Shown: positions 425-29,205, numbered from the stretch's first letter. The stretch is DNA of 60,065 bases from a virus (IMGVR_UViG_3300033109_000118:1-60065); one strand, 5' to 3'. The notes: generated by a model not told the origin, from the sequence alone. Made by a program: numbers and translations.

Positions 425-456
425 AAGGCCCCGAGCAGAGATGCCGGGGCCTTTTT
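425..456 (+). terminator. Intrinsic terminator between convergent units
   Basis: AAGGCCCCG (425-433) / CGGGGCCTT (445-453) stem followed by a T run. Confidence 0.8.
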
Positions 457-3400
457 AATTCCGTGATTCACCGTCGACTGTCAGGCCTTCGCGCAGCCTC
501 TCCTTCTTGACCAGCGCCTTCTCCCATTCGGATTCCAGCACCCGGTCAGCAATGGCGCCCTTGGCGTTGAGGCGCTGCAGCTTCCTGATCTCGGCATCGA
601 TGTCGCGGATCATCTTGTTGCGCATGTTGTTGTCGATCTGTTCGCTGGTCTCCAGGTCGATCGGCCGCGCCTTGATGCCGAAGGTCTGCATGGCGGCGTA
701 CTTGGCCTGCACGGGGTTGCCGTCCTTGCCGATGCCGGTGGAATCACCGCCCAGGAAGTCAGGCACCCACTTCAATTCGCCGCCCGTAGCCTGCGCCAGC
801 GCATTCATGCCGCGCTCCCAGTGGTAGTTGTTGACGGCGATCGCCGGTGAAACCTGTTTCCAGATCCAGGCAGCGCGCTTCTCCGCGGCTTCGGCACGGG
901 TGTCGTTGCTGTCGATGATCTCCTTGCCGAAGAACAAGTCCTTGTTGCCGATCATGGCCACGGCCGTCGTGAACAGCGGGTGACTTGGCGTGACGGGCTG
1001 CGGGATCGGCAGGCCCATGGCATTCGGGCTGACATCGAAGAGGTCGCCGCCGGGGATGATGCGGCTGGTGTCGATGAAAACCGGCAGCTTGGTCAGCTCA
1101 TCCATGCCGAGCCGGATGGCCTTGGGCGTCATCAGTGCCGTGGTGCCCTTCATCCATGGCGGCAGGAACTCGCGCTCCAGCTTTTCGGCCTCGCGCGTCT
1201 TGGAACGGAACTCGGGATCAGTCAGGTACTTGGTCAGGCGTTCCATCCAGCTGTCGTCGTCATCGCCGGCCGCGATCGCGTAGGCGGCTGCATTGGCTGC
1301 CCACAGCACGGCCGCCGGCGCCAGAAAACGATCGGGCCGGGTCAGTGCGGTGTTCAGCAGTGCCGGTACCGCCTTGTAGGTGTAGGCGAAGAACGGGATG
1401 CCGAAGTCGCGTACCATGCGGGCGCCCTTGGGCAGATCGTCATAGGTGAAGATGTACTTCTGGGCGTAGTCCACGGCGTCCTGCGGATCCGTTCCACGCT
1501 GGCGGGCGTCGCGGTAGATCAGGTAGCGGAAGAACGTGTCCTCGGCCTGGTAGGCGGCTCCCATGGGCTTGCGCAGCCAGAACGTCATGGCGTTGTAGAC
1601 CGCCTCGGCGCCCTTCTTGGTCTTGCTGTCGGCCTTGACCGCCAGTTCCTTCAACTCGGGCGGCAGCGTGTTCATGAGCTCGGCATCGCTCATCGTGCCC
1701 AGGAACAGGCCGGCGTCGCGGGCTTCCTTCACCATGGGCGCGGCCTTCACGAAGTCCTGCATGGCGCCCAGGTACTTGTCGAAGCGGTGGTAGCCAATAC
1801 CGGCGAAGTGCGCCATCGTCAAATTTGATAGCACGTTGTTCACATGAGATACCGGATTGAGGGCGGTTTTTCCCTCTTTCCATACCGCCATGGCGCTGCG
1901 GTACATACGCCAGGCCGCGGACTGCGCTTCCTCGATGTTGGTCAACTGGCTCAGCGTCTCCATGGGCACGTAGCGCCCGGCCAGTTTGCCGTAGCGCTTG
2001 GCGCCGGTGCCCTCGACCGTCGTGTCTGGCACGCGCACCCAGCCGTCGCGCGGCAGGCGGGATGACGTCTCCGGGTTTGTGGCCATACCTTCGAACATGC
2101 GGCCCAGGGCGATGTCGCGCTGCGTCTGCATGTAGCCCATGACGAAGCGGAAGCCGGCGTCACGGATCTCGCCCATGGCGTCGCGTTCCTGGCGGGTGAA
2201 GTCGCGCCAGACCTGCACGGTGCCGTCCACGCTGGGCAGGCTGGGCGTGTAGTCGGGGTCTCGTACCTGCCAGCCCATGGCCTCGTAGTTGGCCAGCTGG
2301 TTCTCGGGGATGGTCTCGTAGAGGCCGCGGCCCTTGAGGTGCTTGCCGCCGATACCTTTCAGCGACTTCGGGCGCAGGCCAATCAGGCGAGCAGCATCTG
2401 CCCAGGCTTCACCGACCTGCTTGCGCAACTTGGACTCGTAGAACCGTGGCAGGTAGCGGCCATCCCATTGCGCCGCAGTTTCCGGCGTCAGCATGCCGAG
2501 ACGGATCAGTTCCTTGGACTGCTCACCCATGGCCGTATTCATGGCGGCAGCCAGCCGGACGGCATGCTCGGGCGGCACGGTGCCGGCGGCCAGTTCCTTC
2601 TCGATGATGTCGGAGACCATCAGGCGCTCGGCACTGGTGAGCTTCTGGCTTTCCTTGGCCACGGCCACGGCCACGTCCTGGGCCTTCTGCACGTCCAGCT
2701 TCATCTGGCGCAGCTGGCGGCGCAGTTCCGGGCTGGCAGCCTTGAGCTGCAGCTTGACCAACAGCGGGTTGGCAGCCTTGCCGATCAGGTTGTAAAGGGC
2801 TTGGCCGGGGGCGAAGACGGCGCGGCCGGTGGTGTCGCGCCACTGCGAAGACTTCGGAGGTGACTGGATGGCGCCGCCAGTGGCAGCAGTGCCGCGCGCC
2901 AGGGCGCCATTCAGGCCGCCAGCAGCTTGCGAATTTCGGCTTTGGCTTGCCCTGCGTCCTTCTTCAGCGATGCGATCTCGGAGTCGCTGAGCGGGTTCGT
3001 AGTTTGCCAAGTAGCGGGCTTCGGACTGGGTGAGCGCGTCGAAGCCGTAGCCGGTTGCGGCACGGAAGTCGGTTTCGAGGTCGCCATGTTTTTCACGAAG
3101 TTGCTGCAGGGATTTGTCGGATGGCTGGATTGTCGCGCTGTACTGCTTTCCGGTCAAGGCCACGGCCCCCACTACCCTGCCACCGGCCTGCTGAATGTGG
3201 CTGGCCAGCGCAGCAAAGGTGGCGCCCTGGGTCAGGGTGTCGTCCACCAGCAGGTAGTCGCGGCCGGCCTCGATCTCACCGGTGAAGTCTGGAACCGAAA
3301 ACAGGCGATCGAGGCCGTCCATACCGGTGCGGTGCGGACGATTCGCCTGCACGACGGCGGTCTCGGTATCGAGCCCAAGCCGGGCGGCCAGTACCTCAGC

Positions 3401-6400
3401 AGCTGCCAGTGGGATCTTGTTGCGCCCGGCCGCCTCTTCGGCTACTACGGGCACGATCACGGGCTTGGTGTCACCAATGGCGGCCCGCACCTGCTCGACC
3501 AGCTTGTCGCCGACCAGCGCGCGCGCGACCTTGACGGCTGCCGCGACATCGCCGGCCTTGGCCGCAGCGTAGTCCGGCAGGCCAGTAGCAGCACCGAGCG
3601 GATTGCCGACGATGACATCCGGCAGTTCCACGGGCTTGTCGGCACGCGCCGCCGCTACCAGTACCTCGGCGCCGCCGTCCAGGCGATGGCCGGCCTGCAG
3701 GCCCTTCATGCTGGCCACCAGTAGGCCATGCAACTCGGCCTTGGTGAACTTCACAGGGAGACCCAGCCCACGCAGGAAGTCGGCGATCTGGGCCCAGAAC
3801 TGCTTGAGCCAGGACATGCCAGTGGTGAATTCGCCGGTGACGGGATCAACGGCTTCCTCGACAGCAAAGGCCGCGATCTCGTTGGCCTCTTCCGCCGGGC
3901 TCAGGTTGAACTTTCCGGTGTCGTCGACGTAGAGCCGGCGCACCTTGTCGCGGATCTTGGTCAGCGGCTTGTTGCCGGTCTTGAGGGCCAGCTGAAGGTT
4001 GCGCTCGAACTTGGCCTTGCCGTCCTTGCCCAGAATCTTCCAGAGCCCGTAGTGGCCAATGGCTTCATGGGCCAGCGTCTGGGCGATGGCGTCTCGGCTG
4101 ACATGGTTGCTGGCCACGATGTAGGCCGTACCCTTCTCGCTGACCCAGCCACGGGTATCGCGCGGCGCCACGATCGGCAATTCCTTGGCGGAGGCCACGG
4201 CCTTGAACTTTGGGCCGTTTTCCCATGTCGCCGTCAGCTCGTCGATGATCTTTTGGGCACCGGCCACCGACATTGCCTGGGGCGGGCTGAAGGCTCGGCG
4301 GAAGGCGTCGGCATCCATGCCACGGGCAAGCGTGATGTCGGCGTTGCTGGCGTCGAACTGCCCGTTGTTGCCGGTGGCGCTCTTGATCTGCTCGGGTAGG
4401 AATACCTTGTATTCCACCGCATCCATTGACTCGCCGTTGCCAACATGGATAGCGCCATCAAAGCCTGCATCTTTCGCGGCTCCGACAAAAGCGAAGTCGT
4501 CCAGCAGCGGATATGCGTCCATGTAAAGCTCAGACACAGCGCTCGGGCTTGCGTCCAGCAGCGCATCGACCGATTCGTATTTGTCCGCGAAGTTTTCCTC
4601 CCAGTTGCCGGTGTTTTGAATCCAGTCAGCATGCTTTCGGGCGAACTTGATGGAGACATCACGCCCCAACTTTTTCACCAAGTCAGAAAACTCGACAAAC
4701 GGATCGTCGCGGTTTTCGATGACCGGATTCTGAATGGACAGGAAAGCAGGGATGACTTTCGGAGAATCTGCACTCAAAAAGTTGCGGGTGTCGTTAGGCG
4801 ACATAGCGTAGGTGCTGGCAACCTTCGGGTCATCCACAAAGGTGTAAGACGCTAGAGTGGTGCGTGGCTGCCCATCGCCTCCATGCTCACCGCGATACAC
4901 CACCAGCGGCTTGCCTTGGGCATCTACCACCTTGCTGTCGCCAAACCAGCGCTTGAACTCAGGCGTGTCGGTTTGATCCTGGCCGCCACGGGCGAACATC
5001 GGCAGACCCTGGGCCGCCTTCTCGCGCATGGCGGGGGTGATGGTGAATCCGGGTTGCTCCAGCGTCTTGAGTGGTTGATCTGGCCAGTTCTTGCGCCAGT
5101 TGTCGGCGGCTTCGCCAGTCTGGTCGATCGTCACCGCTTCCATCTGGCCACCGCCCACCTTCGGCAGCAGCTTCTTGACGGCAGACGGGACAATCTGGTC
5201 GTAGAAGGCCTTCATGCCTTCGCCGCCGACCTTGAGGTCGAGGCCGGACAGTTCCTTGGTGCGTGCGTAGGTACCGCCGTCCGTGCGCTCGTTGCTGGCC
5301 TTGCTGGTCAACAGCTTTTCCGCAGCATCCTTACCGATCAGGCCCGGCAGTTCTTTGGCCGGATCGCTGATGAATTTGCTGATGACCTCCTTGCCGTTCA
5401 GATTCCAGGCCGTCAGAGTTCCGCGTGACGGTTTTCCACTCATCTCGGCCCAGCCGGCGCCGCCGGAGTTATTGTCGGCGTAGCGGATCTTGCTGATCTG
5501 CTTGCTCAGGTCATACCGCTCTGCGCTTTGCGTCCCGTTGACGAAGGCCACGCGGTCGTAGCCATCTTGTGCGGCCATGGTGATGATGCGCTTGAGGGCG
5601 AGGTTGAGCCAGGCGTCTGTCTTTCCCACAAATGGGGCCTGCGGAATTCCACTCTCGACAAGTCGTGCGCCGGCTGCACGCGCACGATCCTGCAATTCCT
5701 TCGGAGCCTTATCAAACCCGCCAGCGGCATCTACCTCGCGCGTGATAGCGTCAATCTCTGCCTTTTCCTTGGCGCCCGGGGCAAAACCCTTTTTCTTCCC
5801 CTCCTGCCCCCAATCGCTCTGGATCTCCTCAACGAACAGTACGCGCTTGCCGTCAGCGCCTGTGCGGTCATTCAGGCGGATGTGGGCGAGGACGTTGAGT
5901 TGATCCCAGTGGTTAGATTTGTAGGTAGCCTTGTCCAAATCCTTGGCATAGCGTTCGGCCTCAGACTTGTCATCGGCATTGCTCACACTGAACTCTCGTA
6001 CAGTGCCATCGGAAAGTTCAACGCGCCACACATCTCCGTCAGACGTTGCTGATTTTGCAGTTCTATTGTCAGTAACCGGGAGCGTCAGCAGAACCTCGCG
6101 GTAGTTCTCGCCACCGGGCAGGGTGTAGCTTTCGTATTTTGTCGCCTTCTCTGTCGTCGGGAATTCCTCGCCGGTATCTGGATCGACATAAATACGTTCA
6201 CCGTCCTTTCCTCCAAGCGTGACCTCTTCCACCTGCACGCCATTGCCATCCAAATAGTCCAGCACCTGCTCTTTCGTCACCTTTCCGGTCTGCATCTGCA
6301 GCCAGTCGGTAACGCCTGACCATTCAACTTCATCGACTTTCACGGCGCCTTTGTTCACCAGACCCTGAATCTGGGCGCGCCATCCGTCGGCACCTTGGGT

Positions 6401-9400
6401 CTTGGCTGGAATGGTGGCTACGCCGTCGCGAAGAGCTGATCGCCACACCGGTGCGCCGCGTGCCATGGCAGATTGTTCATTTGTCTTTCTCGGCTGGTCA
6501 AACAGGCTGCCAGTCGTGTCCTGGCGTCCATCTTCCTGGGTCAAGCTGAATTGGCCGGAGCCGGCTTCGCTTTCCCGGCGGACTTGCTCGCGCTGGTCGA
6601 GTTCGGCTGCAGTATCGGCACGCTCCTGCTGGGCGATGACGTCCTCGCGCGTCGGCGCCGTCAGGCCTTCGCTGTCGGTCTTGGCAAGGCCAAAGACGCG
6701 TTGCCGGCGTGACAGTGCCCCGGCTTCTTTCAGGGCGTCCACGATCTGCTGGTCGCTGGCGCCGGCCGCCACGGTCACGGGTTCGCCGGAGTCGTAGCCG
6801 ATGGCTTCGTTGTCGCCGATGAACACGATGCCGTTTCGCACCGTCACGGCTTCCGCTGTGCTGGGCATGATGCCGATGCTCAGGCCGGCCGGGGCCGCCA
6901 TGAATTCGGCACGTGCGGCTTGCTGGCGGGCTTTCTTCTCGGCTTGGCGGGCGCGTTCACCGGCTTCGGCGGCTTCGCGTGCCGTGAGTTTTGGCTTTTC
7001 TCCGCGCAAGATGGCCTGGGCCTTCTCGGCTTGCGTGCGGCCCACCAGGATGCCGCCCTTCATGGTGACCAGCAACTTTGCGGGGATCGCGCTCAGGGCT
7101 TCGCGGATGGCCTTAGCGTCACCCTTGACAGCCAGTGTGCCGTCGGCGCGCGGCTCCATGGTAAAACCAGAAACAGAAACCCCCGCATCGGCGGGGGTCT
7201 GTTGAGGTTCCCGGCTTACTTGGCCTGGGTCTTGTTCTTGGCCAGGCGCTGGGCTTTCGCTGCCAGCAGGCGGGCGCTGATCTCCTGCGCTTCCCGGCTG
7301 GGCTGCGATGGCGGTTTCAAGGGCACGTTTTGCTGTTTCATAGTAGGCCTGCTGGGTTGCATTCTCGGTGGTTTTCGCCACATTTTCAAGGACTGTTTCG
7401 GCATCGATGCCTTGATCCTCGGCGGTGGCCAGCAGCGCACGCACCTCGGCCTGCACTTCCGGGCTGGCGTCGTCGTAGCCGGACTGCTCGAGTTCGGCAT
7501 CGGTGAAGCCTTCCGGCGCCAGCGGGTCGGCACCGGTGTCGGCTTCCTGCTGGGCGGCCAGGTGGTCCTCGTAGCGTGCCGCATGCTCGGCTTCTGCCAG
7601 GGCCTGCCAGCCCTCGGCGGTGTACTGAGGCTGCGTCATGCTGCGCCGGATCAGGTCGGCGGCATCGCTTTCGTTCTCTGTCGCCAGGTAGCCGGCCTGC
7701 GCCAGTTTCATGGCGGCCTGTTCCAGCGTCAGGCCCTTGCCCTGGGCAGCGAACAGCCATCGGTTGCCGACGCGCACGTTGGCGTCGAAGCCGGTGTCGG
7801 CCATGGCGGAGCGCGATAGGCCGCCTTCGGCCGCAATGAAGGCGTGGGCAGACAGTGGGCCACTGCCGGTGTGCGGCAGGCGCAGGCGCTTGGCGGCACG
7901 CTCCATGGCAGCGAGTTGCGCCGGCGTCTTGCCGGAGAGCTCTACTGCAGGGTGTTGGTCGGCACTGGGCTGAAGATCAGCAGCTGCAGCAGGCTGTACT
8001 GCTCCCGCGGTGTCTCTTTCAACGCCATTTCCAGCGATTGCCGCCGCGTCAGGCGCTTCGGGCGTGACGGTGCCGGCGGCGCCTTGGCCTTGGCCGCCTT
8101 CTTGGGTTTTGAATTGGATGGCACTGATCGGCTCCTTCTTCTTGCCGTCGCGCACCCAGGACTTGAATGCGGGCAGCGGTACCTCAGTGATGGCGCCGCG
8201 GCCAGTCCAGCCGGGCTCGTAGTTGGCGTGGTAGCCACGGTCGGCTTCCTCGAGCGAGTCGAAGCCCAGCATGACCTTGTGCTCGTCGAAGCTGCCGTCC
8301 TTGTTCAGCTGGTCAACGACGAACACCTTGGTGCTGTCGGGGTTCGGCCCGATGAAGGTGTCCACGTGGTCACCGTCGTTACCGTTGGTGCGCTTGAAGT
8401 AGCCGTAGTGGCTGGCCAGCGTGCTCGACCACTCTTTGCCGTCCGGGCTGACGCCACGGCGTTCGCTACCCTGCGGGTTCTCGATGGCGATGTCGAGACC
8501 GTGCAGGTTGATGTGGCCCTTCTGGTAGTTGCCGGCTTCCTTCTGGGCCTGGGTGGGCTCCGGCAGGTCGTTCAGCGGGCTGGTGGCGGCAGCATGGGCG
8601 GCTTGATCGATGTCGGGGCGGGTCGTCTGCTGGCCAAGGATGCGCTCGATGTTGTCGACGGCCTGCACGGACTCCGAAGGTGCTACGGAATTCATAGCTT
8701 GCGGCGCAGTGTTATCAACGGCTGGCGTCTGATTTTGTCCCGATTCCAGGGCCTGCGCGGCTTCTATGGTCTGGCGGGTGTCGCCGTACAGGCTTTGCGT
8801 GGCCGAATCCATGGCGTCGTCGCGCGCCGCCTCCAGCAGGGTGCCTAGTGCTGCGTCTGGCGCCTGGATGGCACCACGGTTGGCCAATCCCTGGGTGTAG
8901 CGCTGCAGGAAACCCGGCAACTTGTCCAGGCTGATCTTGCGGGAAGCCTCCAGGGCGGCGGCAATGGCTTTCTCCGACATGCCGGCAGCAGTAGCGGTCT
9001 GGCGGAACCCGGCGTTGAGCGCGGAACGGCCGGCGGCTTCCACCGGCTTGGTGCCGTCGGCACGCAGACCGATGTAGCCGGCCTGGAATTCAGGGCTGCG
9101 TGTCTGGTCAGACTGCATGCCCGACAGCTCAGAGATCACGCTGGCCTGCAGGTTCAGCTGGTCCTGACGCTTCTGCAGCAGGTCGGCGGCCTCGTTCTCG
9201 CCGGCATCGCGAAGGCGCTTGATGCGTGGGTCAACCTTGGCGACGGCTCCACCGGATCCGAAGGTGGCCCCCATCATGGCGGCTTGCACCGTGGTGTCGC
9301 GCAAGCCGTCGAGGAACTGGCCCATGGTCAGGTCCGGATTCAGGCCGATGCCGGGCAACAGGTCGGTCGCGGTCTGCCCCAGGTAGGTGATGATCTCGCC

Positions 9401-10681
9401 AGGCACTTCTCGGATGCCGGCGCGCACCAGGACGTCGGCGGCAGTGTGCTTGGCCTGTTCCGAGGCGCCGCGCGTCAGCAGCGTGCCCATGGCGCCGGCC
9501 ACCTTATCGAGTCCCGTGAATTTCTCGCCGATGGCTTCGAACGTGCCTTTGGGGATCGCGCCGGCCAGCGCCATGGCGGGGTCAAGGCCTGCATTCCTGG
9601 CGCGCTCGTATTCCTGGCCAGCCGTCATGACGGACAGCAACGGGATCACGGCCCGGGGCCCGAACGACGTCGCCATCATGGTGGACTGGCCAAGCGATGA
9701 CGCCGCGCCTTCGGCCATGTTGCCCAGGTAAGGCACCGGGCTCTTCGGGCCGAAGCCCGCCACGGGCCCGGCATCGCTCATTCCCTGCTCGAACTGATCG
9801 GCACCGGCGGACGTAGCCTGGCCGGCAGCCGTCAACTGCGGAATGCCGGTGAGGTCACCAGCCGATCGCAGCACGCCGCCCGCCCCTTTGGCGATACCGG
9901 ACACCGCCTTGAACGCGGCGCGCACCGGCATCGATGCGGCACGGATGGCGGCACCACGCTCGAACATCGGGTCGGCTGGCTTGTTTTCACCATCTGGGCG
10001 CATGACGGCGCCAGACCGGCCTTCGGTACCGGGAACCGGGTGGCTTTCGGCATAGTCGCGGCGCGACAGGCGCTGGGCTTCGGCGGGGTCGAACTTCGGC
10101 TCCGGCATCTGCACGCCTTCCAGCACCGATTCCCGGCGCGGATTGGCAACTGCCATGATTTGCTGGCCGAAGTCGGCGCCCGACGGATCAGTGACGCCAG
10201 CCGGTTGTTCAGTTGGTGTCTGAATTAGCTTGGCCTGATCGTTGTGCAACTGCTCGGCGTAGCGTGTCGCCGCCTCGGGTGTGGAAAACATGCCAAGGTG
10301 ACGACCAGTGCGCCGATAGGCTTGCACGGCTTCGTCATCGGTCATGATGCGGCCGTCTTCGCTCACCGTCGGAATCAGTACCTCTTTGCCGCCGATGTTG
10401 ACGCCCATGCTGCGCACGGTACTGATGCTGCCATCGCTATTTTTGACGCGAGGACGGTTGGTCAGGTCAATGTTTCCGGCTTCCAGCATGCCGTTATTGG
10501 ACGCACCCTTGGACGGACTTGATCCTGCTGCCTCTTCAAAGCTGAAGGTTTTCGCGGAAGTGGTCTTTGCCGCCGGTGCCGCGGCTTCCTCGAAGCTGAA
10601 CGTCACCGGTTTCGTGGCTGCAGCTGGTGCAGGTGCTGCAGGTGCTGCTGCCTCTTCAAAGCTGAAAGTCTCTTTTGCCAT
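455..10681 (-). CDS. Giant polyvalent virion/ejection protein (InPase, EEIQSDW domain, ADP-ribosyltransferase, zincin metallopeptidase, PRTase, LPD38-like C-terminus)
   Basis: 3408-aa ORF. Motifs: GNYQKGH..IAIENP..HYGY..DGDHVD..FDEHKVMLGF (InPase); FKRWFGDSKVVD..PLVVYRG (ART-PolyVal-like); HEAIGH (zincin); LLVDDTLTQGAT (PRPP-binding loop). Last gene of the late operon. Confidence 0.85.
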   Translation of the reverse strand: MAKETFSFEEAAAPAAPAPAAATKPVTFSFEEAAAPAAKTTSAKTFSFEEAAGSSPSKGASNNGMLEAGNIDLTNRPRVKNSDGSISTVRSMGVNIGGKEVLIPTVSEDGRIMTDDEAVQAYRRTGRHLGMFSTPEAATRYAEQLHNDQAKLIQTPTEQPAGVTDPSGADFGQQIMAVANPRRESVLEGVQMPEPKFDPAEAQRLSRRDYAESHPVPGTEGRSGAVMRPDGENKPADPMFERGAAIRAASMPVRAAFKAVSGIAKGAGGVLRSAGDLTGIPQLTAAGQATSAGADQFEQGMSDAGPVAGFGPKSPVPYLGNMAEGAASSLGQSTMMATSFGPRAVIPLLSVMTAGQEYERARNAGLDPAMALAGAIPKGTFEAIGEKFTGLDKVAGAMGTLLTRGASEQAKHTAADVLVRAGIREVPGEIITYLGQTATDLLPGIGLNPDLTMGQFLDGLRDTTVQAAMMGATFGSGGAVAKVDPRIKRLRDAGENEAADLLQKRQDQLNLQASVISELSGMQSDQTRSPEFQAGYIGLRADGTKPVEAAGRSALNAGFRQTATAAGMSEKAIAAALEASRKISLDKLPGFLQRYTQGLANRGAIQAPDAALGTLLEAARDDAMDSATQSLYGDTRQTIEAAQALESGQNQTPAVDNTAPQAMNSVAPSESVQAVDNIERILGQQTTRPDIDQAAHAAATSPLNDLPEPTQAQKEAGNYQKGHINLHGLDIAIENPQGSERRGVSPDGKEWSSTLASHYGYFKRTNGNDGDHVDTFIGPNPDSTKVFVVDQLNKDGSFDEHKVMLGFDSLEEADRGYHANYEPGWTGRGAITEVPLPAFKSWVRDGKKKEPISAIQFKTQEGGQGQGAAGTVTPEAPDAAAIAGNGVERDTAGAVQPAAAADLQPSADQHPAVELSGKTPAQLAAMERAAKRLRLPHTGSGPLSAHAFIAAEGGLSRSAMADTGFDANVRVGNRWLFAAQGKGLTLEQAAMKLAQAGYLATENESDAADLIRRSMTQPQYTAEGWQALAEAEHAARYEDHLAAQQEADTGADPLAPEGFTDAELEQSGYDDASPEVQAEVRALLATAEDQGIDAETVLENVAKTTENATQQAYYETAKRALETAIAAQPGSAGDQRPPAGSESPAPGQEQDPGQVSREPQQTPADAGVSVSGFTMEPRADGTLAVKGDAKAIREALSAIPAKLLVTMKGGILVGRTQAEKAQAILRGEKPKLTAREAAEAGERARQAEKKARQQAARAEFMAAPAGLSIGIMPSTAEAVTVRNGIVFIGDNEAIGYDSGEPVTVAAGASDQQIVDALKEAGALSRRQRVFGLAKTDSEGLTAPTREDVIAQQERADTAAELDQREQVRRESEAGSGQFSLTQEDGRQDTTGSLFDQPRKTNEQSAMARGAPVWRSALRDGVATIPAKTQGADGWRAQIQGLVNKGAVKVDEVEWSGVTDWLQMQTGKVTKEQVLDYLDGNGVQVEEVTLGGKDGERIYVDPDTGEEFPTTEKATKYESYTLPGGENYREVLLTLPVTDNRTAKSATSDGDVWRVELSDGTVREFSVSNADDKSEAERYAKDLDKATYKSNHWDQLNVLAHIRLNDRTGADGKRVLFVEEIQSDWGQEGKKKGFAPGAKEKAEIDAITREVDAAGGFDKAPKELQDRARAAGARLVESGIPQAPFVGKTDAWLNLALKRIITMAAQDGYDRVAFVNGTQSAERYDLSKQISKIRYADNNSGGAGWAEMSGKPSRGTLTAWNLNGKEVISKFISDPAKELPGLIGKDAAEKLLTSKASNERTDGGTYARTKELSGLDLKVGGEGMKAFYDQIVPSAVKKLLPKVGGGQMEAVTIDQTGEAADNWRKNWPDQPLKTLEQPGFTITPAMREKAAQGLPMFARGGQDQTDTPEFKRWFGDSKVVDAQGKPLVVYRGEHGGDGQPRTTLASYTFVDDPKVASTYAMSPNDTRNFLSADSPKVIPAFLSIQNPVIENRDDPFVEFSDLVKKLGRDVSIKFARKHADWIQNTGNWEENFADKYESVDALLDASPSAVSELYMDAYPLLDDFAFVGAAKDAGFDGAIHVGNGESMDAVEYKVFLPEQIKSATGNNGQFDASNADITLARGMDADAFRRAFSPPQAMSVAGAQKIIDELTATWENGPKFKAVASAKELPIVAPRDTRGWVSEKGTAYIVASNHVSRDAIAQTLAHEAIGHYGLWKILGKDGKAKFERNLQLALKTGNKPLTKIRDKVRRLYVDDTGKFNLSPAEEANEIAAFAVEEAVDPVTGEFTTGMSWLKQFWAQIADFLRGLGLPVKFTKAELHGLLVASMKGLQAGHRLDGGAEVLVAAARADKPVELPDVIVGNPLGAATGLPDYAAAKAGDVAAAVKVARALVGDKLVEQVRAAIGDTKPVIVPVVAEEAAGRNKIPLAAAEVLAARLGLDTETAVVQANRPHRTGMDGLDRLFSVPDFTGEIEAGRDYLLVDDTLTQGATFAALASHIQQAGGRVVGAVALTGKQYSATIQPSDKSLQQLREKHGDLETDFRAATGYGFDALTQSEARYLANYEPAQRLRDRIAEEGRRASQSRNSQAAGGLNGALARGTAATGGAIQSPPKSSQWRDTTGRAVFAPGQALYNLIGKAANPLLVKLQLKAASPELRRQLRQMKLDVQKAQDVAVAVAKESQKLTSAERLMVSDIIEKELAAGTVPPEHAVRLAAAMNTAMGEQSKELIRLGMLTPETAAQWDGRYLPRFYESKLRKQVGEAWADAARLIGLRPKSLKGIGGKHLKGRGLYETIPENQLANYEAMGWQVRDPDYTPSLPSVDGTVQVWRDFTRQERDAMGEIRDAGFRFVMGYMQTQRDIALGRMFEGMATNPETSSRLPRDGWVRVPDTTVEGTGAKRYGKLAGRYVPMETLSQLTNIEEAQSAAWRMYRSAMAVWKEGKTALNPVSHVNNVLSNLTMAHFAGIGYHRFDKYLGAMQDFVKAAPMVKEARDAGLFLGTMSDAELMNTLPPELKELAVKADSKTKKGAEAVYNAMTFWLRKPMGAAYQAEDTFFRYLIYRDARQRGTDPQDAVDYAQKYIFTYDDLPKGARMVRDFGIPFFAYTYKAVPALLNTALTRPDRFLAPAAVLWAANAAAYAIAAGDDDDSWMERLTKYLTDPEFRSKTREAEKLEREFLPPWMKGTTALMTPKAIRLGMDELTKLPVFIDTSRIIPGGDLFDVSPNAMGLPIPQPVTPSHPLFTTAVAMIGNKDLFFGKEIIDSNDTRAEAAEKRAAWIWKQVSPAIAVNNYHWERGMNALAQATGGELKWVPDFLGGDSTGIGKDGNPVQAKYAAMQTFGIKARPIDLETSEQIDNNMRNKMIRDIDAEIRKLQRLNAKGAIADRVLESEWEKALVKKERLREGLTVDGESRN
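10525..10666 (-). repeat. Triple FSFEEAA peptide repeat; 22-bp exact direct repeat
   Basis: CTGCTGCCTCTTCAAAGCTGAA at 10525-10546 and 10645-10666, with a degenerate third copy between them. Confidence 0.9.
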
Positions 10682-12320: not shown

Positions 12321-13535
12321 TCACGCGCGTTTTTTCGGCTTGGCGTCTTCCAGTCTCGCCAGGCGTTTCTCGATCTTTTGCTGTCCATCGGCCACTTGCT
12401 TGATGGCGGCCAGACCGACCTCGCTCATGCGTTCCATGTTCACCACTTTCCCTTGTGGCGCAACGTCCGGACCCATGACGCGCTTGACGTCCTGCGCCAT
12501 ATTGCCCTTGTGAGTCTTGCCGCCGTCGTCGGCTGGTGAACCCTTCTTGTAGCGCCACGATTCCGTGTCCGGCAGACGTTTAACCTGGTCAAGCGCCACC
12601 TTCCCACTGATCTTCTTGCGGTCGGTCTTCATCTTCTTGTCGGAGTACTTGAAGATGGCGGCACCACCTACTTGGCCGAGGCCGCCCATCAGCGCATTGG
12701 TCGTTGAATTGGCGGCATTGGTGGCGTCGGTCTGGGCGTTGTACTGGCCCAGCATGAGTTGGCCAGCCGAGTTGTTCCCCTGAATCGCCGTGTTGGCACC
12801 ACCCTGCACGATCTGATTGCCTTGTGCCGTGATGTTGCCGGTACTGGCCGCATTGCCCGTCGCCGAGTTGCCGGCGTTCAAGCCGAGTTGGGTCTGCGTG
12901 GCGTTTGTGGCGGCGATATTGCGGCCCAGGCTGGCGGCGTCGGCCAGTTTGGCGGCACCGATGGCCTCGACGTTCTTGCGCGCCTGGTTACCGGCGCCGG
13001 CTTTTACTGCGGCTTCCCGAACACTGGCATTGGCCAGGCTGGCAGCGACGTTGCCGGAGTTGATGTCGCCACCGCGTGACGCAATTTCCCGCAGCATGGT
13101 GGCGCGGCCGGCGTCTCCAGCTGTACCGACATCGGCTTGCGCCTGTGCGGCCTCGGCATCGCGGCGCGCCGTCGTGTCGTAGCCCAGCGCGTCGGCTGCC
13201 ATTTTCTGCTCGAGCGGCCGGAACGTGCCCTTGGTGTAGGCATAGGTCTCGTCGGCCATGTCGCTCTGCTTCTTGGCAGTGTCGGTCTGGGCGCGCGCCA
13301 TATCGAGCGCGATCTTCGTGGCCTCTGCCCGCTGTGGTGCCGTCTCGGCATAGAGCTGCTTCGTCCAGTCCAGATAGTCCTTGCTGATCTGGGCATTGGA
13401 CTGTGCGGCTTGGCCGATCAGCGGGTCCGGTGCTGGTGCACTGTTTCCGCCAAGGTCCAGGCAGCAGATACCGATGCCGGCCAGCCGGTCCTCGATGGCG
13501 GCCTCACGCTGCCGGATGGTCTTGTGTCGTGCCAT
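12321..13535 (-). CDS. Ejection/pilot protein with C-terminal peptidase S74 intramolecular chaperone domain
   Basis: GGNSAPAPDP N-terminal motif and Ala/Gly/Asn-rich body. C-terminal YSDKKMKTD..WRYK..HKGNMAQDV plus coiled coil. Confidence 0.75.
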   Translation of the reverse strand: MARHKTIRQREAAIEDRLAGIGICCLDLGGNSAPAPDPLIGQAAQSNAQISKDYLDWTKQLYAETAPQRAEATKIALDMARAQTDTAKKQSDMADETYAYTKGTFRPLEQKMAADALGYDTTARRDAEAAQAQADVGTAGDAGRATMLREIASRGGDINSGNVAASLANASVREAAVKAGAGNQARKNVEAIGAAKLADAASLGRNIAATNATQTQLGLNAGNSATGNAASTGNITAQGNQIVQGGANTAIQGNNSAGQLMLGQYNAQTDATNAANSTTNALMGGLGQVGGAAIFKYSDKKMKTDRKKISGKVALDQVKRLPDTESWRYKKGSPADDGGKTHKGNMAQDVKRVMGPDVAPQGKVVNMERMSEVGLAAIKQVADGQQKIEKRLARLEDAKPKKRA

Positions 13536-21378: not shown

Positions 21379-22680
21379 TTAGACGCTGCGTTTCTTGACC
21401 ACGCTGTCGATCACGGCCACGCCGAAGTCGGTGACTTCGTTGTCGCCGTCCGCATTGGGCAGGGCCCAGCGCAGCTTTTCCTCGACACCCATGATTTCGC
21501 CGGCCAGTTCGAGGTTGCGATCGAAGTTGGTTTTGGCTTCCAGCAGCGAGTAGGTTTCCTCGCTGGTCTGGTTGCCACCGGACACCAGGGCCAGGGCCTG
21601 CGCGCTCAGGAAAATCGAGCGTGCAACCTGGTGAGTCGTCGACAGGCCAGCGGCCACGGTCACGTTGGTTTCCGTTGCAGCCAGGCGGTTGGCGGCCGTC
21701 ACGTGTGCCACGGCGTCGCTGGCGTCGAAGCGGATGGCGTAGTTCATCTTGCGCACCAGCACACCGTTCCAGAGGATCGGCGAGCCGCTGAACAGAGGGT
21801 GGCGGTTCAGATCACCGTAGCGGGCGCGCTGAATCGCGTTCTGCTCGAACGTGCGGATGTTGTTGCCAGCCGTCGTGTCGGTCACGATGGAGTCCCACAC
21901 CAGCGGATCTACCAGCAGGATGCCTTTGATGGGGTCATCGCCAGCTGCCGGGTCGCCCGGGATCTGGATCGGAGCCATCTTGATGGTCATCTCGTCCCAG
22001 ATCGCGGCGAGCTCGTCGATGTGCGACAGCTTCATGCCGTCTGCGGTGTCGACGCTGGCCAGCTGAGCGCCGCCCTGTACCAGGCCGGTACCGTCAACGA
22101 CCCAGTGCCGGTTGTAGGTCGGCGCTTTGATCGCGTTGACCATCATGTCGGCGAACTCGGGATCGGTTGCCAGAGGCAAAACCCAATCGGTGCCGTCCTG
22201 CTTGCCGCGCGCACCAGCCAGCAGGGTCAAGGCACGCTGCCAGCGAAACGCCGGGATGGCGCGCTTCAACTGCGCCAGGGCATTCAGACGCATGCTGTGG
22301 GGCGTGCGCTGCTGGGTCATCTTGCCGCCGGCAGAAACCGGAAGCGTGGCCATGTCCAGCGTGATGTCCTTGGAGCTGTACTTGAGCGCAGCACCCAGGC
22401 CCTCGGCGTTCTTGTCGCCCATGACGGGACGCAGCTTGACGACGTGTGCGCAGTCGACCTGCACGATGTCGCCGGGACCCTTGGCGAGTTCATCGACACG
22501 GACCACCGGCATTTCGGTCGTGGTTTGCTGCTTGAGCTTGCGCATCGCGGCGTCATGCGTGGGCATGGGACCGGTCAGCGCCTGGATCGGCGTGGGCTGG
22601 CGCACGGCCATTGCCGAGAGCGCGCGGGAGAATTGTTTGTTTGCCAGGGCAGCGCCCTTGGGCACGGAAGTTTGAGACAT
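21379..22680 (-). CDS. Major capsid protein (N4-gp56/DUF4043-like)
   Basis: 433 aa; ELAKGPGD..GGKMTQQRT..HPLFSG..DFGVAVID motifs; follows the scaffold gene. Confidence 0.85.
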   Translation of the reverse strand: MSQTSVPKGAALANKQFSRALSAMAVRQPTPIQALTGPMPTHDAAMRKLKQQTTTEMPVVRVDELAKGPGDIVQVDCAHVVKLRPVMGDKNAEGLGAALKYSSKDITLDMATLPVSAGGKMTQQRTPHSMRLNALAQLKRAIPAFRWQRALTLLAGARGKQDGTDWVLPLATDPEFADMMVNAIKAPTYNRHWVVDGTGLVQGGAQLASVDTADGMKLSHIDELAAIWDEMTIKMAPIQIPGDPAAGDDPIKGILLVDPLVWDSIVTDTTAGNNIRTFEQNAIQRARYGDLNRHPLFSGSPILWNGVLVRKMNYAIRFDASDAVAHVTAANRLAATETNVTVAAGLSTTHQVARSIFLSAQALALVSGGNQTSEETYSLLEAKTNFDRNLELAGEIMGVEEKLRWALPNADGDNEVTDFGVAVIDSVVKKRSV

Positions 22681-23859: not shown

Positions 23860-26001
23860 TCAGATGGCTGGAGATGGATCTGCTTCGGCGAGCGCTTCGG
23901 CAATCACGTCGTCTTCGTTGACACCGTTATCGGCTCGCGCAAACTTCTCGGCGGCCTCGGCTTGCGGGACTCCGGCCTGGATCCGACTCTCGATCAGTTG
24001 TGCTGCCGCCGTGGATTGGCGAGCGCTGGCACGGTTGCGTTCAGCCGTCGAGACGTGCACATCGCGCTGGGCATCTGCCAACGCCTGCTCGTTTTGCATC
24101 TTCTGGGTGACCAACTGTTCCTGCATGGCGTCGGCCTTGGCTTGGCCGGCTTTGTCGCCCGGAATGGGAAGACCCTCGGCCTTGCGCAGGCTGTCGGCAA
24201 CCTCTTGGCGGTTGTTGAGGTTGGTGCTTTCGATGTAGGCCGGCGCCAGGATGGCGGTCGCCTTCGGATTGGCGCCAAGTGACTGGATGATGGTGGCGAG
24301 TTGCTGCTGGAGTTGCTGGCGGTAGGCCGGCGTGTTCGGTGTTTCTGCCAGTGCGGTCTTGATGCTGGCGTCCTTGACCTGGTTGACTGGCATTCCGGTC
24401 TCAGCATTCCAGTCGTTGAGGACCACGATGCGCCGGGTTTTCCCGGTACCGATTGGCACGCGCATGCGCTCTTCTCTGAGGTCTTCTACGATCTCGTCGA
24501 CCAGGCACTCGAAAGCACCCCGGCGTGCGTAGACGTAGTTGTCGTTCATTTCGCCCATTGCCTGTTCACCCTGCTCGATCAGCAGGCTGTTGGCGACGCC
24601 ACTTGTGACGCCGGCTGGGCGGTTTCCGAGCTGGCTGGCGTAACGGCCGGCGGTGTCCTGGATCAGCTGCTTGCTGTCGGCGAGCACGTTGAATTGCTCT
24701 GGCTGCATCTGCAGATCGCTGCTGATCTTGATGGCTGCCTGATTCTTGTTTGCACGTTGCGGGTTGGTGATTGCCACCATGTCGGGCCGCATCACGGTGT
24801 CGGCGATGTCGGCGATGGTGTTGTAGTCCGTGTCCAGTGCGTCACTGTCCATCTGCAACTGGCGGGCCTTGAGCATCCACTGGATCCGGTGGCGGCGCTC
24901 GTTGTATTCATCCTGCGGGGCGATCATGCCGTCGATCAAGCCGTAGGGGCTGCCATCCTCGTCGTCGCGGAAGGCGAAGAACGGGATGTAGGGGAAGCGG
25001 CGCTTGGTAGTGGCCTCGTCCAGCAGGCGATGCGGTCCAGCGTACAGCGCGCGGCGGACCTGGGACGTGATTCCTTTGCTGATCTTGACCAGGCCGCGGC
25101 TGACAGCCTGCACGTGGCGCGGGTCACGTTCGTCGTATGCCACCCTCTTTGTCGGGCCAAGGTGCAGCACGGCAACAGTGGCAGGCACGCGATACCAGAC
25201 CTCGTAGAGCCTGATCATCTTGCGGGCGCTGTCAACCCATTCGTATTTGCTCACCGTCAGATTGAATCGGCGTTCGTTGTAGAAAGCCTCTCTGATCTCG
25301 ATCTGTTCAGGTTGGCCGACGTGGGCACCATCGATGTCAATGGCGTTCTCCCATCCGTTGACGCTGCGGCGCAGGATCTCCTTGAACTGCGGCATGGCGG
25401 CTTCGACCTCATCCAGGTCGACCATACGCATGCGGACCAGCCAGCGGCAGCCGTCCAGCATCGTCGGGCCACGCTGACCGCGCCAGTCCCACCAGATTTC
25501 GTCGATCGGAACGGCCTCGAAGCGATAGGGATATGCCAGCGGGTCGCTGTTGCGGCCGACGTGCACCCAGCCAAGGCCTTTCTTGACCATGGACGCATAG
25601 CCTTCGCTGACGGCCATATGGGCGCAAGTCTCACGTTCGGCTTCCTTGAGCTTGGCGCTAGCCACTTCTGCTACATCGGCGTGGTCATCGTCATCGGCTT
25701 CCACGCGCACATCGGTGCGGCTCTTAGCCTCCTGACCCAGGACGGAATTGATGACAGGCCGGATCAGGTTGATGGCGCGCTCTTCCAGATCCTCTTGGCG
25801 CAGCCTCCACCGCTGCAGTTCGGTCAGCTGCTTGCCGTCGTAGTAGGCGGCGCACAGCTTGGCGCGTAGCCTCCACTCAGGCTGTTCTGCGCAGTCGCGC
25901 AGCATGCGCTCAAGGGCGTAGAGACTGAACGCGCCAGCACCGGCGAAGTCGCGGCCAGCACCAGCCTCTCGATCGTCATATTGCGGGGTTGGTTTGTTCA
26001 T
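23860..26001 (-). CDS. Portal protein (P22-like)
   Basis: 713 aa; YYDGKQ, NLIRPVINSVLG, FPYIPF, PYGLI..PQDEYN motifs; Gln-rich barrel. Confidence 0.9.
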   Translation of the reverse strand: MNKPTPQYDDREAGAGRDFAGAGAFSLYALERMLRDCAEQPEWRLRAKLCAAYYDGKQLTELQRWRLRQEDLEERAINLIRPVINSVLGQEAKSRTDVRVEADDDDHADVAEVASAKLKEAERETCAHMAVSEGYASMVKKGLGWVHVGRNSDPLAYPYRFEAVPIDEIWWDWRGQRGPTMLDGCRWLVRMRMVDLDEVEAAMPQFKEILRRSVNGWENAIDIDGAHVGQPEQIEIREAFYNERRFNLTVSKYEWVDSARKMIRLYEVWYRVPATVAVLHLGPTKRVAYDERDPRHVQAVSRGLVKISKGITSQVRRALYAGPHRLLDEATTKRRFPYIPFFAFRDDEDGSPYGLIDGMIAPQDEYNERRHRIQWMLKARQLQMDSDALDTDYNTIADIADTVMRPDMVAITNPQRANKNQAAIKISSDLQMQPEQFNVLADSKQLIQDTAGRYASQLGNRPAGVTSGVANSLLIEQGEQAMGEMNDNYVYARRGAFECLVDEIVEDLREERMRVPIGTGKTRRIVVLNDWNAETGMPVNQVKDASIKTALAETPNTPAYRQQLQQQLATIIQSLGANPKATAILAPAYIESTNLNNRQEVADSLRKAEGLPIPGDKAGQAKADAMQEQLVTQKMQNEQALADAQRDVHVSTAERNRASARQSTAAAQLIESRIQAGVPQAEAAEKFARADNGVNEDDVIAEALAEADPSPAI

Positions 26002-28295: not shown

Positions 28296-28583
28296 TCACA
28301 CCACCTTGGCGATCAGTTCCTCTTCCCGCATGACGACGACTTCTTCGCCGCCTACCGTGACGGTCTGGCCGCTGTACTTGCCGAACAGGACGCGGTCGCC
28401 TGCCTTCACGGACATCGGGATGACTTCGCCGCGTTCATTCGTACGGCCGGGGCCGGCGGCCAAGACTTCGCCCTGGGTTGGCTTCTCTTCGGCGCCGGGT
28501 GACAGCACGATGCCGGATGGCGTCTTGGTTTCGGCTTCGATCACCTTGATGATTACGCGGTCGTGCAGGGGTTGCAGGCTCAT
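28296..28583 (-). CDS. groES: Co-chaperonin GroES
   Basis: [48 protein letters not shown]; 95 aa. Confidence 0.95.
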
Positions 28584-28864
28584 GGGGTCTCCGGTTGGTT
28601 CGTGAGTTTGATGGGGGCCGTGCAGGCTTCCAGGGCGGTGCGCAGCTTGATCTCGTAGCCTTCGCGGCGCTCGATCTCGGCACGGGCGGCGCGCTGATAT
28701 ACGTCCAGGGCCGGCTTCTCGGTGAACTGCTCGGTCGGCATGACGGGGCGGTCGGGCACCGTCTCCCGGCATTCCACGGGGACAGGCACATTCACGGTGG
28801 CAATGCCCGGCGTTGTGGCGCAGCCGGCCAGAGCCAAGGCGGCGGCGATCAGGATCAACTTCAT
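28580..28864 (-). CDS. o-spanin (Rz1-like lipoprotein)
   Basis: Lipobox LAGC, Pro-rich, follows the i-spanin. Confidence 0.8.
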
Positions 28865-29205
28865 GGCTTCGCCCTCCCCGTCCACCAGACATCGAGATCC
28901 GTCTGGGCGCTGGCGCAGGCATCGCCGGGTACGGCTGGCGGCGTTGTCAGGATCCGGTCGGCGGCGCGGTTGTGCTCGTCGGACTTCTTGGCGGCGGCGG
29001 CGCGCTTCGGAGCGGCATCGGCTTCTCGCTGTTTGCCCTGCTGCTGCAGCTGCTCGGTGCCTTGGCTGCATTCCTGGGCTGCGGCTTCGACGTGCTTGGC
29101 GTCTGTCTTGGCTTCCACGGCGGTGTCGCGCTGGCCCAGGTAGGCATAGCCCAGAAAGGCGTTGGCGATCAGGCTGATGGCCAGGATGATGCCCAGCGGG
29201 TTCAT
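28861..29205 (-). CDS. i-spanin (Rz-like)
   Basis: N-terminal transmembrane helix plus coiled coil, after the endolysin. Confidence 0.8.

Follow-up and report, generated by a model that had tools for sequence, protein, structure and literature searches.

A conserved junction peptide between the modules of giant phage polyvalent proteins and an unannotated HExxxH module as its putative protease

The phage sequence IMGVR_UViG_3300033109_000118:1-60065 encodes a giant protein of 3408 residues, here named P0001, which belongs to the phage polyvalent proteins of Iyer et al. 2017 (PMC5512222), because InPase, ART-PolyVal and APRT-like phosphoribosyltransferase (PRTase) domains share one chain in the structural block of a provirus. 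An initial annotation had proposed that a repeated xARG motif marks every module junction of this protein and serves as a code for self-processing. Here, we show by comparison of sequences that the xARG sites represent, in P0001, a peptide that is conserved at the module junctions of giant polyvalent virion proteins of phages. The junction peptide is real, and its proper form is not xARG but a hydrophobic residue followed by [A/S]-R-[G/S/A]. We further propose, with about even chances of being right, that the junction peptides are processing sites cut by the HExxxH module of the same chain.

Translation of the open reading frame (ORF) agrees with the annotation that P0001 has exactly four ARG tripeptides, at residues 1407 (MARG), 1897 (FARG), 2119 (LARG) and 2595 (LARG), and that AARA occupies residues 2344-2347; the latter is one of four ARA tripeptides in the protein. 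Module boundaries were set independently of the motif, as the points where BLAST homology with 119 other giant proteins begins or ends. This gave nine breakpoint peaks in P0001, at residues 849, 909, 1405, 1504, 1901, 1989, 2125, 2346 and 2592, and the breakpoint clusters that bear the motif lie at residues 1391-1420, 1891-1910, 2111-2130, 2341-2360 and 2571-2600. All four ARG tripeptides are found within 10 residues of a breakpoint peak. As windows of 10 residues on either side of the peaks span 5.5% of the chain, the chance of such a placement is 9.5e-6, and the claim that every ARG sits at a boundary is confirmed. Only one of the four ARA tripeptides is near a peak, and it is the AARA that the initial annotation had named. 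The number of ARG tripeptides is ordinary (4 observed versus 2.7 expected, shuffle P=0.29), and the bare tripeptide was rejected as the signal because its count is no higher than chance. Hydrophobic-ARG is enriched in P0001 (4 versus 0.70 expected, P=0.006), a pattern picked after looking at the sequence.

The predicted structure places the modelled sites in segments of low confidence. An AlphaFold model was built for residues 1880-2620 with an alignment of 26 homologues; MARG is outside the modelled range and is judged by breakpoints only. The confident blocks of the model are the C-terminal half of the ART domain, the module that carries HEAIGH, and the PRTase. FARG, LARG, AARA and LARG are all in segments with a predicted local distance difference test (pLDDT) score below 50, and folded blocks flank the last three, AARA (model residues 465-468) lying within or bordering the segment 442-467. 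The four modelled sites are thus in predicted exposed linkers and not inside folded domains, which is the outcome that the annotation had looked for in a structure prediction. For FARG the evidence is weak, as its low-pLDDT segment (model residues 1-103) also contains the poorly modelled N-terminal half of the ART domain. Because the first ∼100 residues of the model are poorly modelled, the assignment of FARG to a linker rests mainly on the breakpoints.

The junction peptide is conserved in homologues. A search with residues 1400-2620 of P0001 found 819 proteins at E≤0.001, and the 120 giant homologues listed were taken as set 1, to which the counts below refer unless stated otherwise. F[AS]R[GSA] occurs 132 times in these proteins, compared with 28-57 times for permutations of the same composition, and 94 of the 132 occurrences are at breakpoints versus 22% of 6000 random positions. 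The motif was found in 91 of 965 junction windows and in 2 of 965 control windows; with the wider pattern [FLMYW][AS]R[GSA] the counts were 165 and 21. Reversed or permuted motifs were not enriched at junctions (25 vs 21, 25 vs 26 and 39 vs 32, in 965 windows each). The enrichment was repeated in set 2, which comprises 91 giants from an exhaustive search with the HExxxH module and has a median best identity to set 1 of 57% by high-scoring segment pair (HSP): F[AS]R[GSA] was present in 29/381 junction windows vs 1/381 controls, and [FLMYW][AS]R[GSA] in 56/381 vs 8/381. A short site is therefore conserved at module junctions, at the peaks of P0001 and in both homologue sets, and the enrichment at homologue boundaries that the annotation would expect is present. 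Comparison with cultured phages by tblastn showed homology blocks that begin or end right at the motifs, and ITFSRS, IRFSRA, PLFARS and IAFARS stand at comparable places in the giant protein of Dolichospermum phage Dfl-JY45, which has the HExxxH module as well.

After near-identical contexts were dropped, 318 junction sites remained. Position 0 is F in 52% of these sites, L in 22%, Y in 15%, M in 8% and W in 4%; it is preceded by P/A/I at position -2 and A/L/M/R at position -1, and followed by A (56%) or S (44%) at position +1. R at position +2 was set by the search pattern, and position +3 is G in 27%, A in 15% and S in 10%. Gly, Ala, Pro and Asp are abundant on either side of the sites. The consensus read from these sites is (P/A/I)-(A/L/M/R)-[F>L>Y>M>W]-[A/S]-R-[G/A/S]. 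AARA can be accepted as a degenerate member, for the homologous boundary in relatives reads VAAAR, PVWARG, PAFSRT or PAFARD, and the C-terminal boundary of the HExxxH module fits [AFLMYWV][AS]R[GSAED] in 85 of 156 copies. Two relatives, P0008 (residues 2573-2597) and P0029 (residues 2822-2842), have tandem motifs behind the PRTase, YARG and then LARG, 17 residues apart; the equivalent stretch of P0001 (window 2891-2970) has the second of the two (LARG) only.

Relatives exchange modules exactly at the motif. Behind the tail '...AMREKAAQGLPM-FARG', P0001 has the ART head, P0002 the head of the HExxxH module and P0056 yet another head. The head 'APVWRSALRDG', in turn, stands behind MARG, FARG, LARG, YARG or FSRA in P0001 and its relatives, and the motif closes no fewer than six unrelated types of tail. 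The initial annotation had suggested, from the sequence GCCCGTGGC common to two sites, that these might be swap points. The exchange itself is borne out; the argument from DNA is weak, for GCCCGTGGC reflects codon identity, being common to FARG and the first LARG only as the identical codons GCC-CGT-GGC (9 nucleotides). The four ARG sites are encoded by ATG-GCA-CGC-GGC, TTC-GCC-CGT-GGC, CTT-GCC-CGT-GGC and CTG-GCG-CGC-GGC. A DNA repeat as the swap point was rejected, as the codons differ and only these 9 nucleotides are common to two of the four sites. Judged from the sequences, selection on the junction acts at the protein level and not at the DNA level, because the four sites differ in codons, A/S and G/S/A alternate, and unrelated tails converge on the motif.

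The commonest of the tails is a cassette, QIKSA-x-GN-x-G-x-FD-xx-N-x-DI, that closes ART-like modules and is found 174 times in the 120 giants. As the cassette is nearly absent from 120 ART homologues of standalone size, it belongs to the fused state. Of the anchors in these standalone-size homologues, 2 of 46 lead into the strict motif, versus 30 of 183 (plus 50 of another dialect) in the giants. One relative, P0021 (3825 residues), has 13 QIKSA cassettes, most of them 160-235 residues apart and with an ART head behind them; the protein seems to consist of some ten ART-like modules in tandem, which all close with a DITRRA dialect.

What links the junction peptide to a putative protease is its coupling to the HExxxH module. 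Of the 61 proteins with the module, 57 have the junction motif, compared with 17 of the 59 that lack the module (odds ratio (OR) 35, p=5e-14), and this co-occurrence is what a pair of protease and site predicts. Among other candidate predictors, PRTase has an OR of 1.7 (not significant) and InPase of 4.1, while the OR of 10.6 for an HEWxH zincin comes from a domain that mostly co-occurs with the HExxxH module; no other module predicts the motif in module-negative proteins. In proteins without PRTase, the motif was found in 29/29 that have the HExxxH module and 12/43 that lack it. Nine carriers of the module that BLAST had missed and a profile search recovered all have the motif, compared with 17 of the 59 remaining proteins (p=6e-5).

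The ending of the QIKSA cassette follows the same division. It reads x[SA]R in 34/48 cassettes with the HExxxH module and 9/126 without it (p=6.5e-17, kinship ignored), while a second ending, [KRH][SA]..R (DIRKSADR, DITRSPAR), is found in 0/48 and 61/126, respectively. To take kinship into account, a FastTree phylogeny of 174 ART-like domains was made with the tails excluded, in which the presence of the module changes at least 29 times. In seven independent supported pairs, the x[SA]R ending was concordant with the module in 5.8, opposite in 0.0 and without difference in 1.2 (median sign-test p 0.031). Site and putative protease hence co-vary, within the bounds of seven contrasts and a motif definition made post hoc.

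When the cassettes were divided three ways, x[SA]R closes 34 of 47 with the HExxxH module, hydrophobic-[SA] lacking R closes 16 of 36 with a second zincin family (HExxH), and [KRH][SA]..R closes 56 of 90 with neither zincin in the chain. The split supports, at the level of sequence patterns, the existence of separate junction dialects. The dialect DI[RT][KR]S[AP][DA]R stands at the equivalent position of the cassette in P0018, P0057, P0062, P0070, P0076, P0095 and others that have no zincin in the chain, and no in-chain link of the HExxH zincin to the DIRKS..R dialect was seen (4/25 vs 23/95). Of three IMG/VR records that hold a relative of P0018, two (one of them 99% complete) have an HExxH zincin in a neighbouring giant ORF (G005:C1:58097-58654), and the third is 33% complete; the HExxxH module is found in none of the three.

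The annotation had called this module a HEAIGH peptidase. That HEAIGH is HExxxH, a motif of six residues, and not the HExxH signature of zincins goes against the name, while the invariant H/E/H and the predicted zincin-like layout are in its favour. All alignments, of 26 to 51 homologues, keep H2205, E2206 and H2210 without exception. When 35 short homologues were included, P52, H88, E89, H93, Y134, L143 and E151 (module numbering) were invariant and E158 nearly so; E151 and E158 are both on model helix 145-159, downstream of HEAIGH. A model of the module only (pLDDT 82.3, predicted template modelling score 0.73) has strands 41-45, 61-63 and 68-72, then a long helix 79-117 carrying HEAIGH, and then further helices, a layout that is predicted to be zincin-like. 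In BFVD, parts of other polyvalent proteins were matched in structure at E 3.6e-6 to 3e-4, among them a phage phi191 protein labelled 'Phage MuF C-terminal domain' (E 1.4e-4), and a SprT-like protein was matched at E=0.084; the ESM Atlas gave nothing usable for the module. By jackhmmer the module is present in 61 of the 120 giants (52 by BLAST), and of 63 occurrences of the active-site motif in the family 59 read HExxxH and four HExxH. The HExxxH module is probably a metallopeptidase of a new family, a putative assignment that draws on alignments and models.

About 40 standalone proteins of 220-300 residues (P0317-P0380) share the module and read HExxxH[HY]G[LM]R; they were found by exhaustive search, whereas a word-index search had found one standalone form. 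Many of them end in a hydrophobic tail that resembles a membrane segment, and one has a KfrB (plasmid) domain. No Pfam family was matched by the standalone proteins, which look like an undescribed family.

We propose that the HExxxH module, as a zincin-like metallopeptidase, would recognise the junction peptides and cut the 3408-residue chain, either inside the capsid or after entry into the host cell. Cutting would free residues ∼1-1405 (the N-terminal part with InPase), 1410-1895 (EEIQSDW), 1900-2117 (ART), 2348-2593 (PRTase) and 2598-3408, as well as the peptidase itself (2122-2343), which might remain attached to the PRTase. Zincin specificity is as a rule for the residue directly behind the cut, and F, L, Y, W and M, as well as K/R, are N-degrons of bacteria, read by ClpS or extended by Aat. 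It is a long shot, but if the cut precedes the hydrophobic residue, the freed effectors would begin with F/L/Y/W/M (K/R in the other dialect), which would give them a built-in short lifetime, and different dialects would pair with different zincin families as separate systems of protease and site.

Several observations weigh against processing by the HExxxH module. The support is wholly comparative. The claim that the motif marks every junction holds for five of the nine breakpoint peaks of P0001 and fails for the other four (residues 849, 909, 1504 and 1989) and for the N-terminal 1400 residues, which have boundaries but no motif. Some motifs in the relatives are 16-24 residues ahead of their own stop codon, where a cut would free a short peptide, and 'GLP(L/M)FS(R/K)' is in part a feature of the EEIQSDW tail itself, in module-negative proteins too. 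The coupling has exceptions on both sides, for 4 of the 61 module-positive proteins are without the junction motif and 17 of the 59 module-negative ones carry it. One of the motif-bearing proteins, P0073, has two junction motifs, and the HExxxH module was found nowhere in its record (97% complete) nor in the records of three relatives (one 100% complete), in a search whose positive control was successful. The independent contrasts number only seven, and the motif definition was refined after the data had been seen. As for the module itself, there is no HExxH anywhere in P0001. Searches of Pfam, NCBIfam and PDB sequence profiles found no match to the module, and a Foldseek search of the PDB found nothing significant, its best match being anthrax lethal factor at E=0.49.

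The sites could instead be an uncut adapter for recombination or linkage, kept because only swaps at a common joint work, or for the flexibility of the linker, with the link to the HExxxH module due to common descent or to a shared pool of adapters. We consider this account possible, though doubtful. It would accommodate the exact coincidence of module swaps with the motif, the motifs in phage records without the HExxxH module and those near C-termini, where a cut would be pointless; and the dialect is mostly uniform inside one protein (P0021, P0004), as tandem duplication would give. It is harder to reconcile with the junction itself, where common DNA does not exceed 9 nucleotides, the four sites differ in codons and unrelated tails converge on the same residues. 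Every module in an adapter pool should also predict the motif, yet PRTase, InPase, ART and EEIQSDW do not once HExxxH is accounted for, while the association with HExxxH is seen among PRTase-negative proteins (29/29 vs 12/43) and survives the independent contrasts.

Cleavage by another protease, of the host or encoded elsewhere in the phage, with the HExxxH module directed at the host or the cell wall, strikes us as unlikely. The 17 of 59 module-negative proteins that carry the motif would be explained in this way, and a trypsin-like enzyme could take the conserved Arg and the small residue behind it as its P1/P1' pair. A wall-degrading role has been proposed for the gp47 metallopeptidase of phage phi24B (10.64898/2026.04.10.717836), and targeting of the host is listed as an option for such peptidases by Iyer et al. 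(PMC5512222). However, no prohead-protease or other protease family was found in the 10 ORFs of the structural region, the sole peptidase-type match being the Peptidase_S74 tail-fibre chaperone domain, and the shift of dialect with the type of zincin in the phage protein would be left unexplained by a host protease. A head protease as the cutter was rejected, as the search of these 10 ORFs found no such family.

There is a slim prospect that the motif is an uncut docking peptide that binds the capsid interior, the portal, DNA (via Arg) or the HExxxH module and so organises the packed chain. Docking would be compatible with a short linear motif whose Arg is invariant, that lies in disordered linkers and that keeps company with one module; nothing specific favours this reading, no partner has been identified, and the motif is present in very different phage backgrounds, such as the record of a 209-kb cyanophage. 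Chance, finally, deserves practically no credence: four ARG tripeptides are an ordinary number for a protein rich in Ala, Arg and Gly (P=0.29), but their placement (P=9.5e-6) and the junction enrichment in two homologue sets with permuted controls led us to reject it.

The modules and junction motifs of P0001 are listed in Table 1.

Table 1. Modules and junction motifs of P0001, with positions in the window (the whole 60,065-base stretch of DNA analysed)
Feature	Position in window	Strand	Residues of P0001	Remarks
Giant ORF	455..10681	-		P0001, 3408 residues; polyvalent virion/ejection-type protein closing podovirus-like structural module
Junction motif 1, MARG	6455..6466	-	1406-1409	After low-complexity linker, before EEIQSDW-module head 'APVWRSALRDG'; peak at residue 1405, 72 HSP ends
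EEIQSDW module	4997..6454	-	1410-1895	No Pfam match; tail '...ITPAMREKAAQGLPM'; common to 91/120 homologues
Junction motif 2, FARG	4985..4996	-	1896-1899	Peak at residue 1901, 122 HSP ends; model residues 17-20
ART-PolyVal module	4331..4984	-	1900-2117	Includes tail cassette QIKSATGNNGQFDASNADIT
Junction motif 3, LARG	4319..4330	-	2118-2121	Peak at residue 2125, 88 HSP ends; model residues 239-242, in pLDDT<50 segment 202-250
HExxxH module	3653..4318	-	2122-2343	Unannotated family, putative zincin-like peptidase
HEAIGH	4052..4069	-	2205-2210	Candidate metal-binding and catalytic motif
Junction motif 4, AARA	3641..3652	-	2344-2347	Degenerate, inside 'VLVAAARADKP'; peak at residue 2346, 25 HSP ends
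Phosphoribosyltransferase module, APRT-like	2903..3640	-	2348-2593	Foldseek vs PDB: APRT and ComF, E 2e-5 to 1e-3; high pLDDT, model residues 468-704
Junction motif 5, LARG	2891..2902	-	2594-2597	Peak at residue 2592, 32 HSP ends; model residues 715-718, in pLDDT<50 segment 705-741
C-terminal region	458..2890	-	2598-3408	Common to 15/120 homologues; no Pfam match

The window is a provirus record with an estimated completeness of 93%. Genes for the small and large terminase, portal, major head protein (Phage_capsid_3), tail fibres and an internal virion protein are located upstream of the giant ORF, so that P0001, by gene position, belongs to the delivery context of a phage, behind the virion-protein genes. 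At least two unrelated effector-type domains are found in its one chain, InPase (PF18823, residues 711-843, E 1.7e-57) and ART-PolyVal (PF18760, residues 1920-2109, E 4.7e-11), together with the PRTase, whose Pfam match is below threshold and which is APRT-like by fold. The InPase region matches PHROG families that include 'DarB-like antirestriction' and 'minor head protein', and the C-terminal region (residues 2598-3408) is probably a structural or anchoring part.

At the other end of P0001, residues 4-52 (window 10526-10672, minus strand) have three copies of TFSFEEAA, spaced by ∼20 residues through Ala/Pro-rich stretches. The N-terminal (T/I)FSFEEA repeat, in two to three copies, is common to 7 of 120 homologues, and an eighth, P0066, fits a loose pattern only; the repeat is similar to the 'DIRFSFAEE' junction variant of P0031 and may be a packaging or anchoring signal.

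Among the neighbouring genes, all on the minus strand, a 208-residue ORF beside the small terminase gene (window 28296-28922) has a C-terminal Cpn10 (GroES-like) domain (E 2.4e-29). A 404-residue virion structural protein (window 12321-13535) has a Peptidase_S74 domain at residues 298-354. Peptidase_S74 is the intramolecular chaperone of endosialidase-type fibres, which suggests that the 404-residue protein is a self-cleaving fibre or spike. Lone matches to the junction motif, which could be due to chance, are KQFSRALS near the N-terminus (residue 17) of the major head protein (window 21379-22680) and EKFARADN near the C-terminus (residue 687) of the portal (window 23860-26001).

Giant polyvalent proteins are common in phages, as seen from the 819 relatives of residues 1400-2620 at E≤0.001, and their cutting into separate effectors has been proposed since 2017 without named sites. 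The present analysis adds a defined junction peptide, an unannotated HExxxH module that travels with it, and the exact candidate residues. If our proposal is true, the pair of protease and site might allow the mature cargo of many uncultured phages to be predicted, and would account for module swaps that leave function intact.

Iyer, Burroughs, Anand, de Souza and Aravind 2017 (PMC5512222) proposed that built-in metallopeptidases process polyvalent chains. No junction peptide is named in the available text of that paper, in which 'linker', 'interdomain' and 'boundar' have no occurrence. P0001 resembles the polyvalent proteins described there in being a giant multi-enzyme chain with InPase and ART-PolyVal from a phage structural module, and differs from their zincin-like MPTase proteins in that its HExxxH module fits no Pfam model. 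The gp47 protein of the Stx phage phi24B, with 2811 residues, is an LPD-domain giant with a MuF-C metallopeptidase; mass spectrometry found gp47 in virions, and it is a proposed ejection protein; in the available text its peptidase is assigned to peptidoglycan degradation and no processing of gp47 is reported (10.64898/2026.04.10.717836). The MuF C-terminal protein of phi191, a phage related to phi24B, is a structural match to the modelled HExxxH module of P0001 (E 1.4e-4). The available text of the paper on the Bcep22-like phage JC1 is silent on cleavage of its large protein. In the literature searched, supplementary files aside, no junction motif or mapped cleavage is described for such proteins, relatives included.

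Looking beyond polyvalent proteins, short peptides at the joints of modular chains are familiar from other systems. Demarcation motifs of polymorphic toxins, VENN in CdiA and PxxxxDPxGL in Rhs, are like the motif of P0001 short conserved peptides at the exchange point of a variable module, and maybe also processing points; these toxins have one junction per protein and other mechanisms, whereas P0001 has several junctions and a putative metalloprotease. Prohead proteases such as T4 gp21 and phiKZ gp175 process packaged head proteins, so that capsid cargo is cut at short motifs, to which the cuts proposed for P0001 would be similar, but their motif differs and no prohead protease family was found in the 10 structural-region ORFs here.

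By analogy of function, the closest counterparts would be MARTX toxins and viral polyproteins. In viral polyproteins, as with picornavirus 3C, a dedicated protease cuts a short site at every junction; protease (putative in P0001) and site code reside in one chain and the site recurs at domain boundaries, the difference being that viral polyproteins give replication and capsid proteins and P0001 serves a DNA phage as accessory cargo. In MARTX toxins, an in-chain cysteine protease domain cuts between effector modules. Like P0001, they combine in one delivered chain swappable effector modules, an in-chain protease (putative in P0001) and short linker sites; unlike P0001, they are secreted by bacteria, have a cysteine protease activated by a host cofactor and are unrelated in sequence, so that the likeness is one of working mode and not of family.

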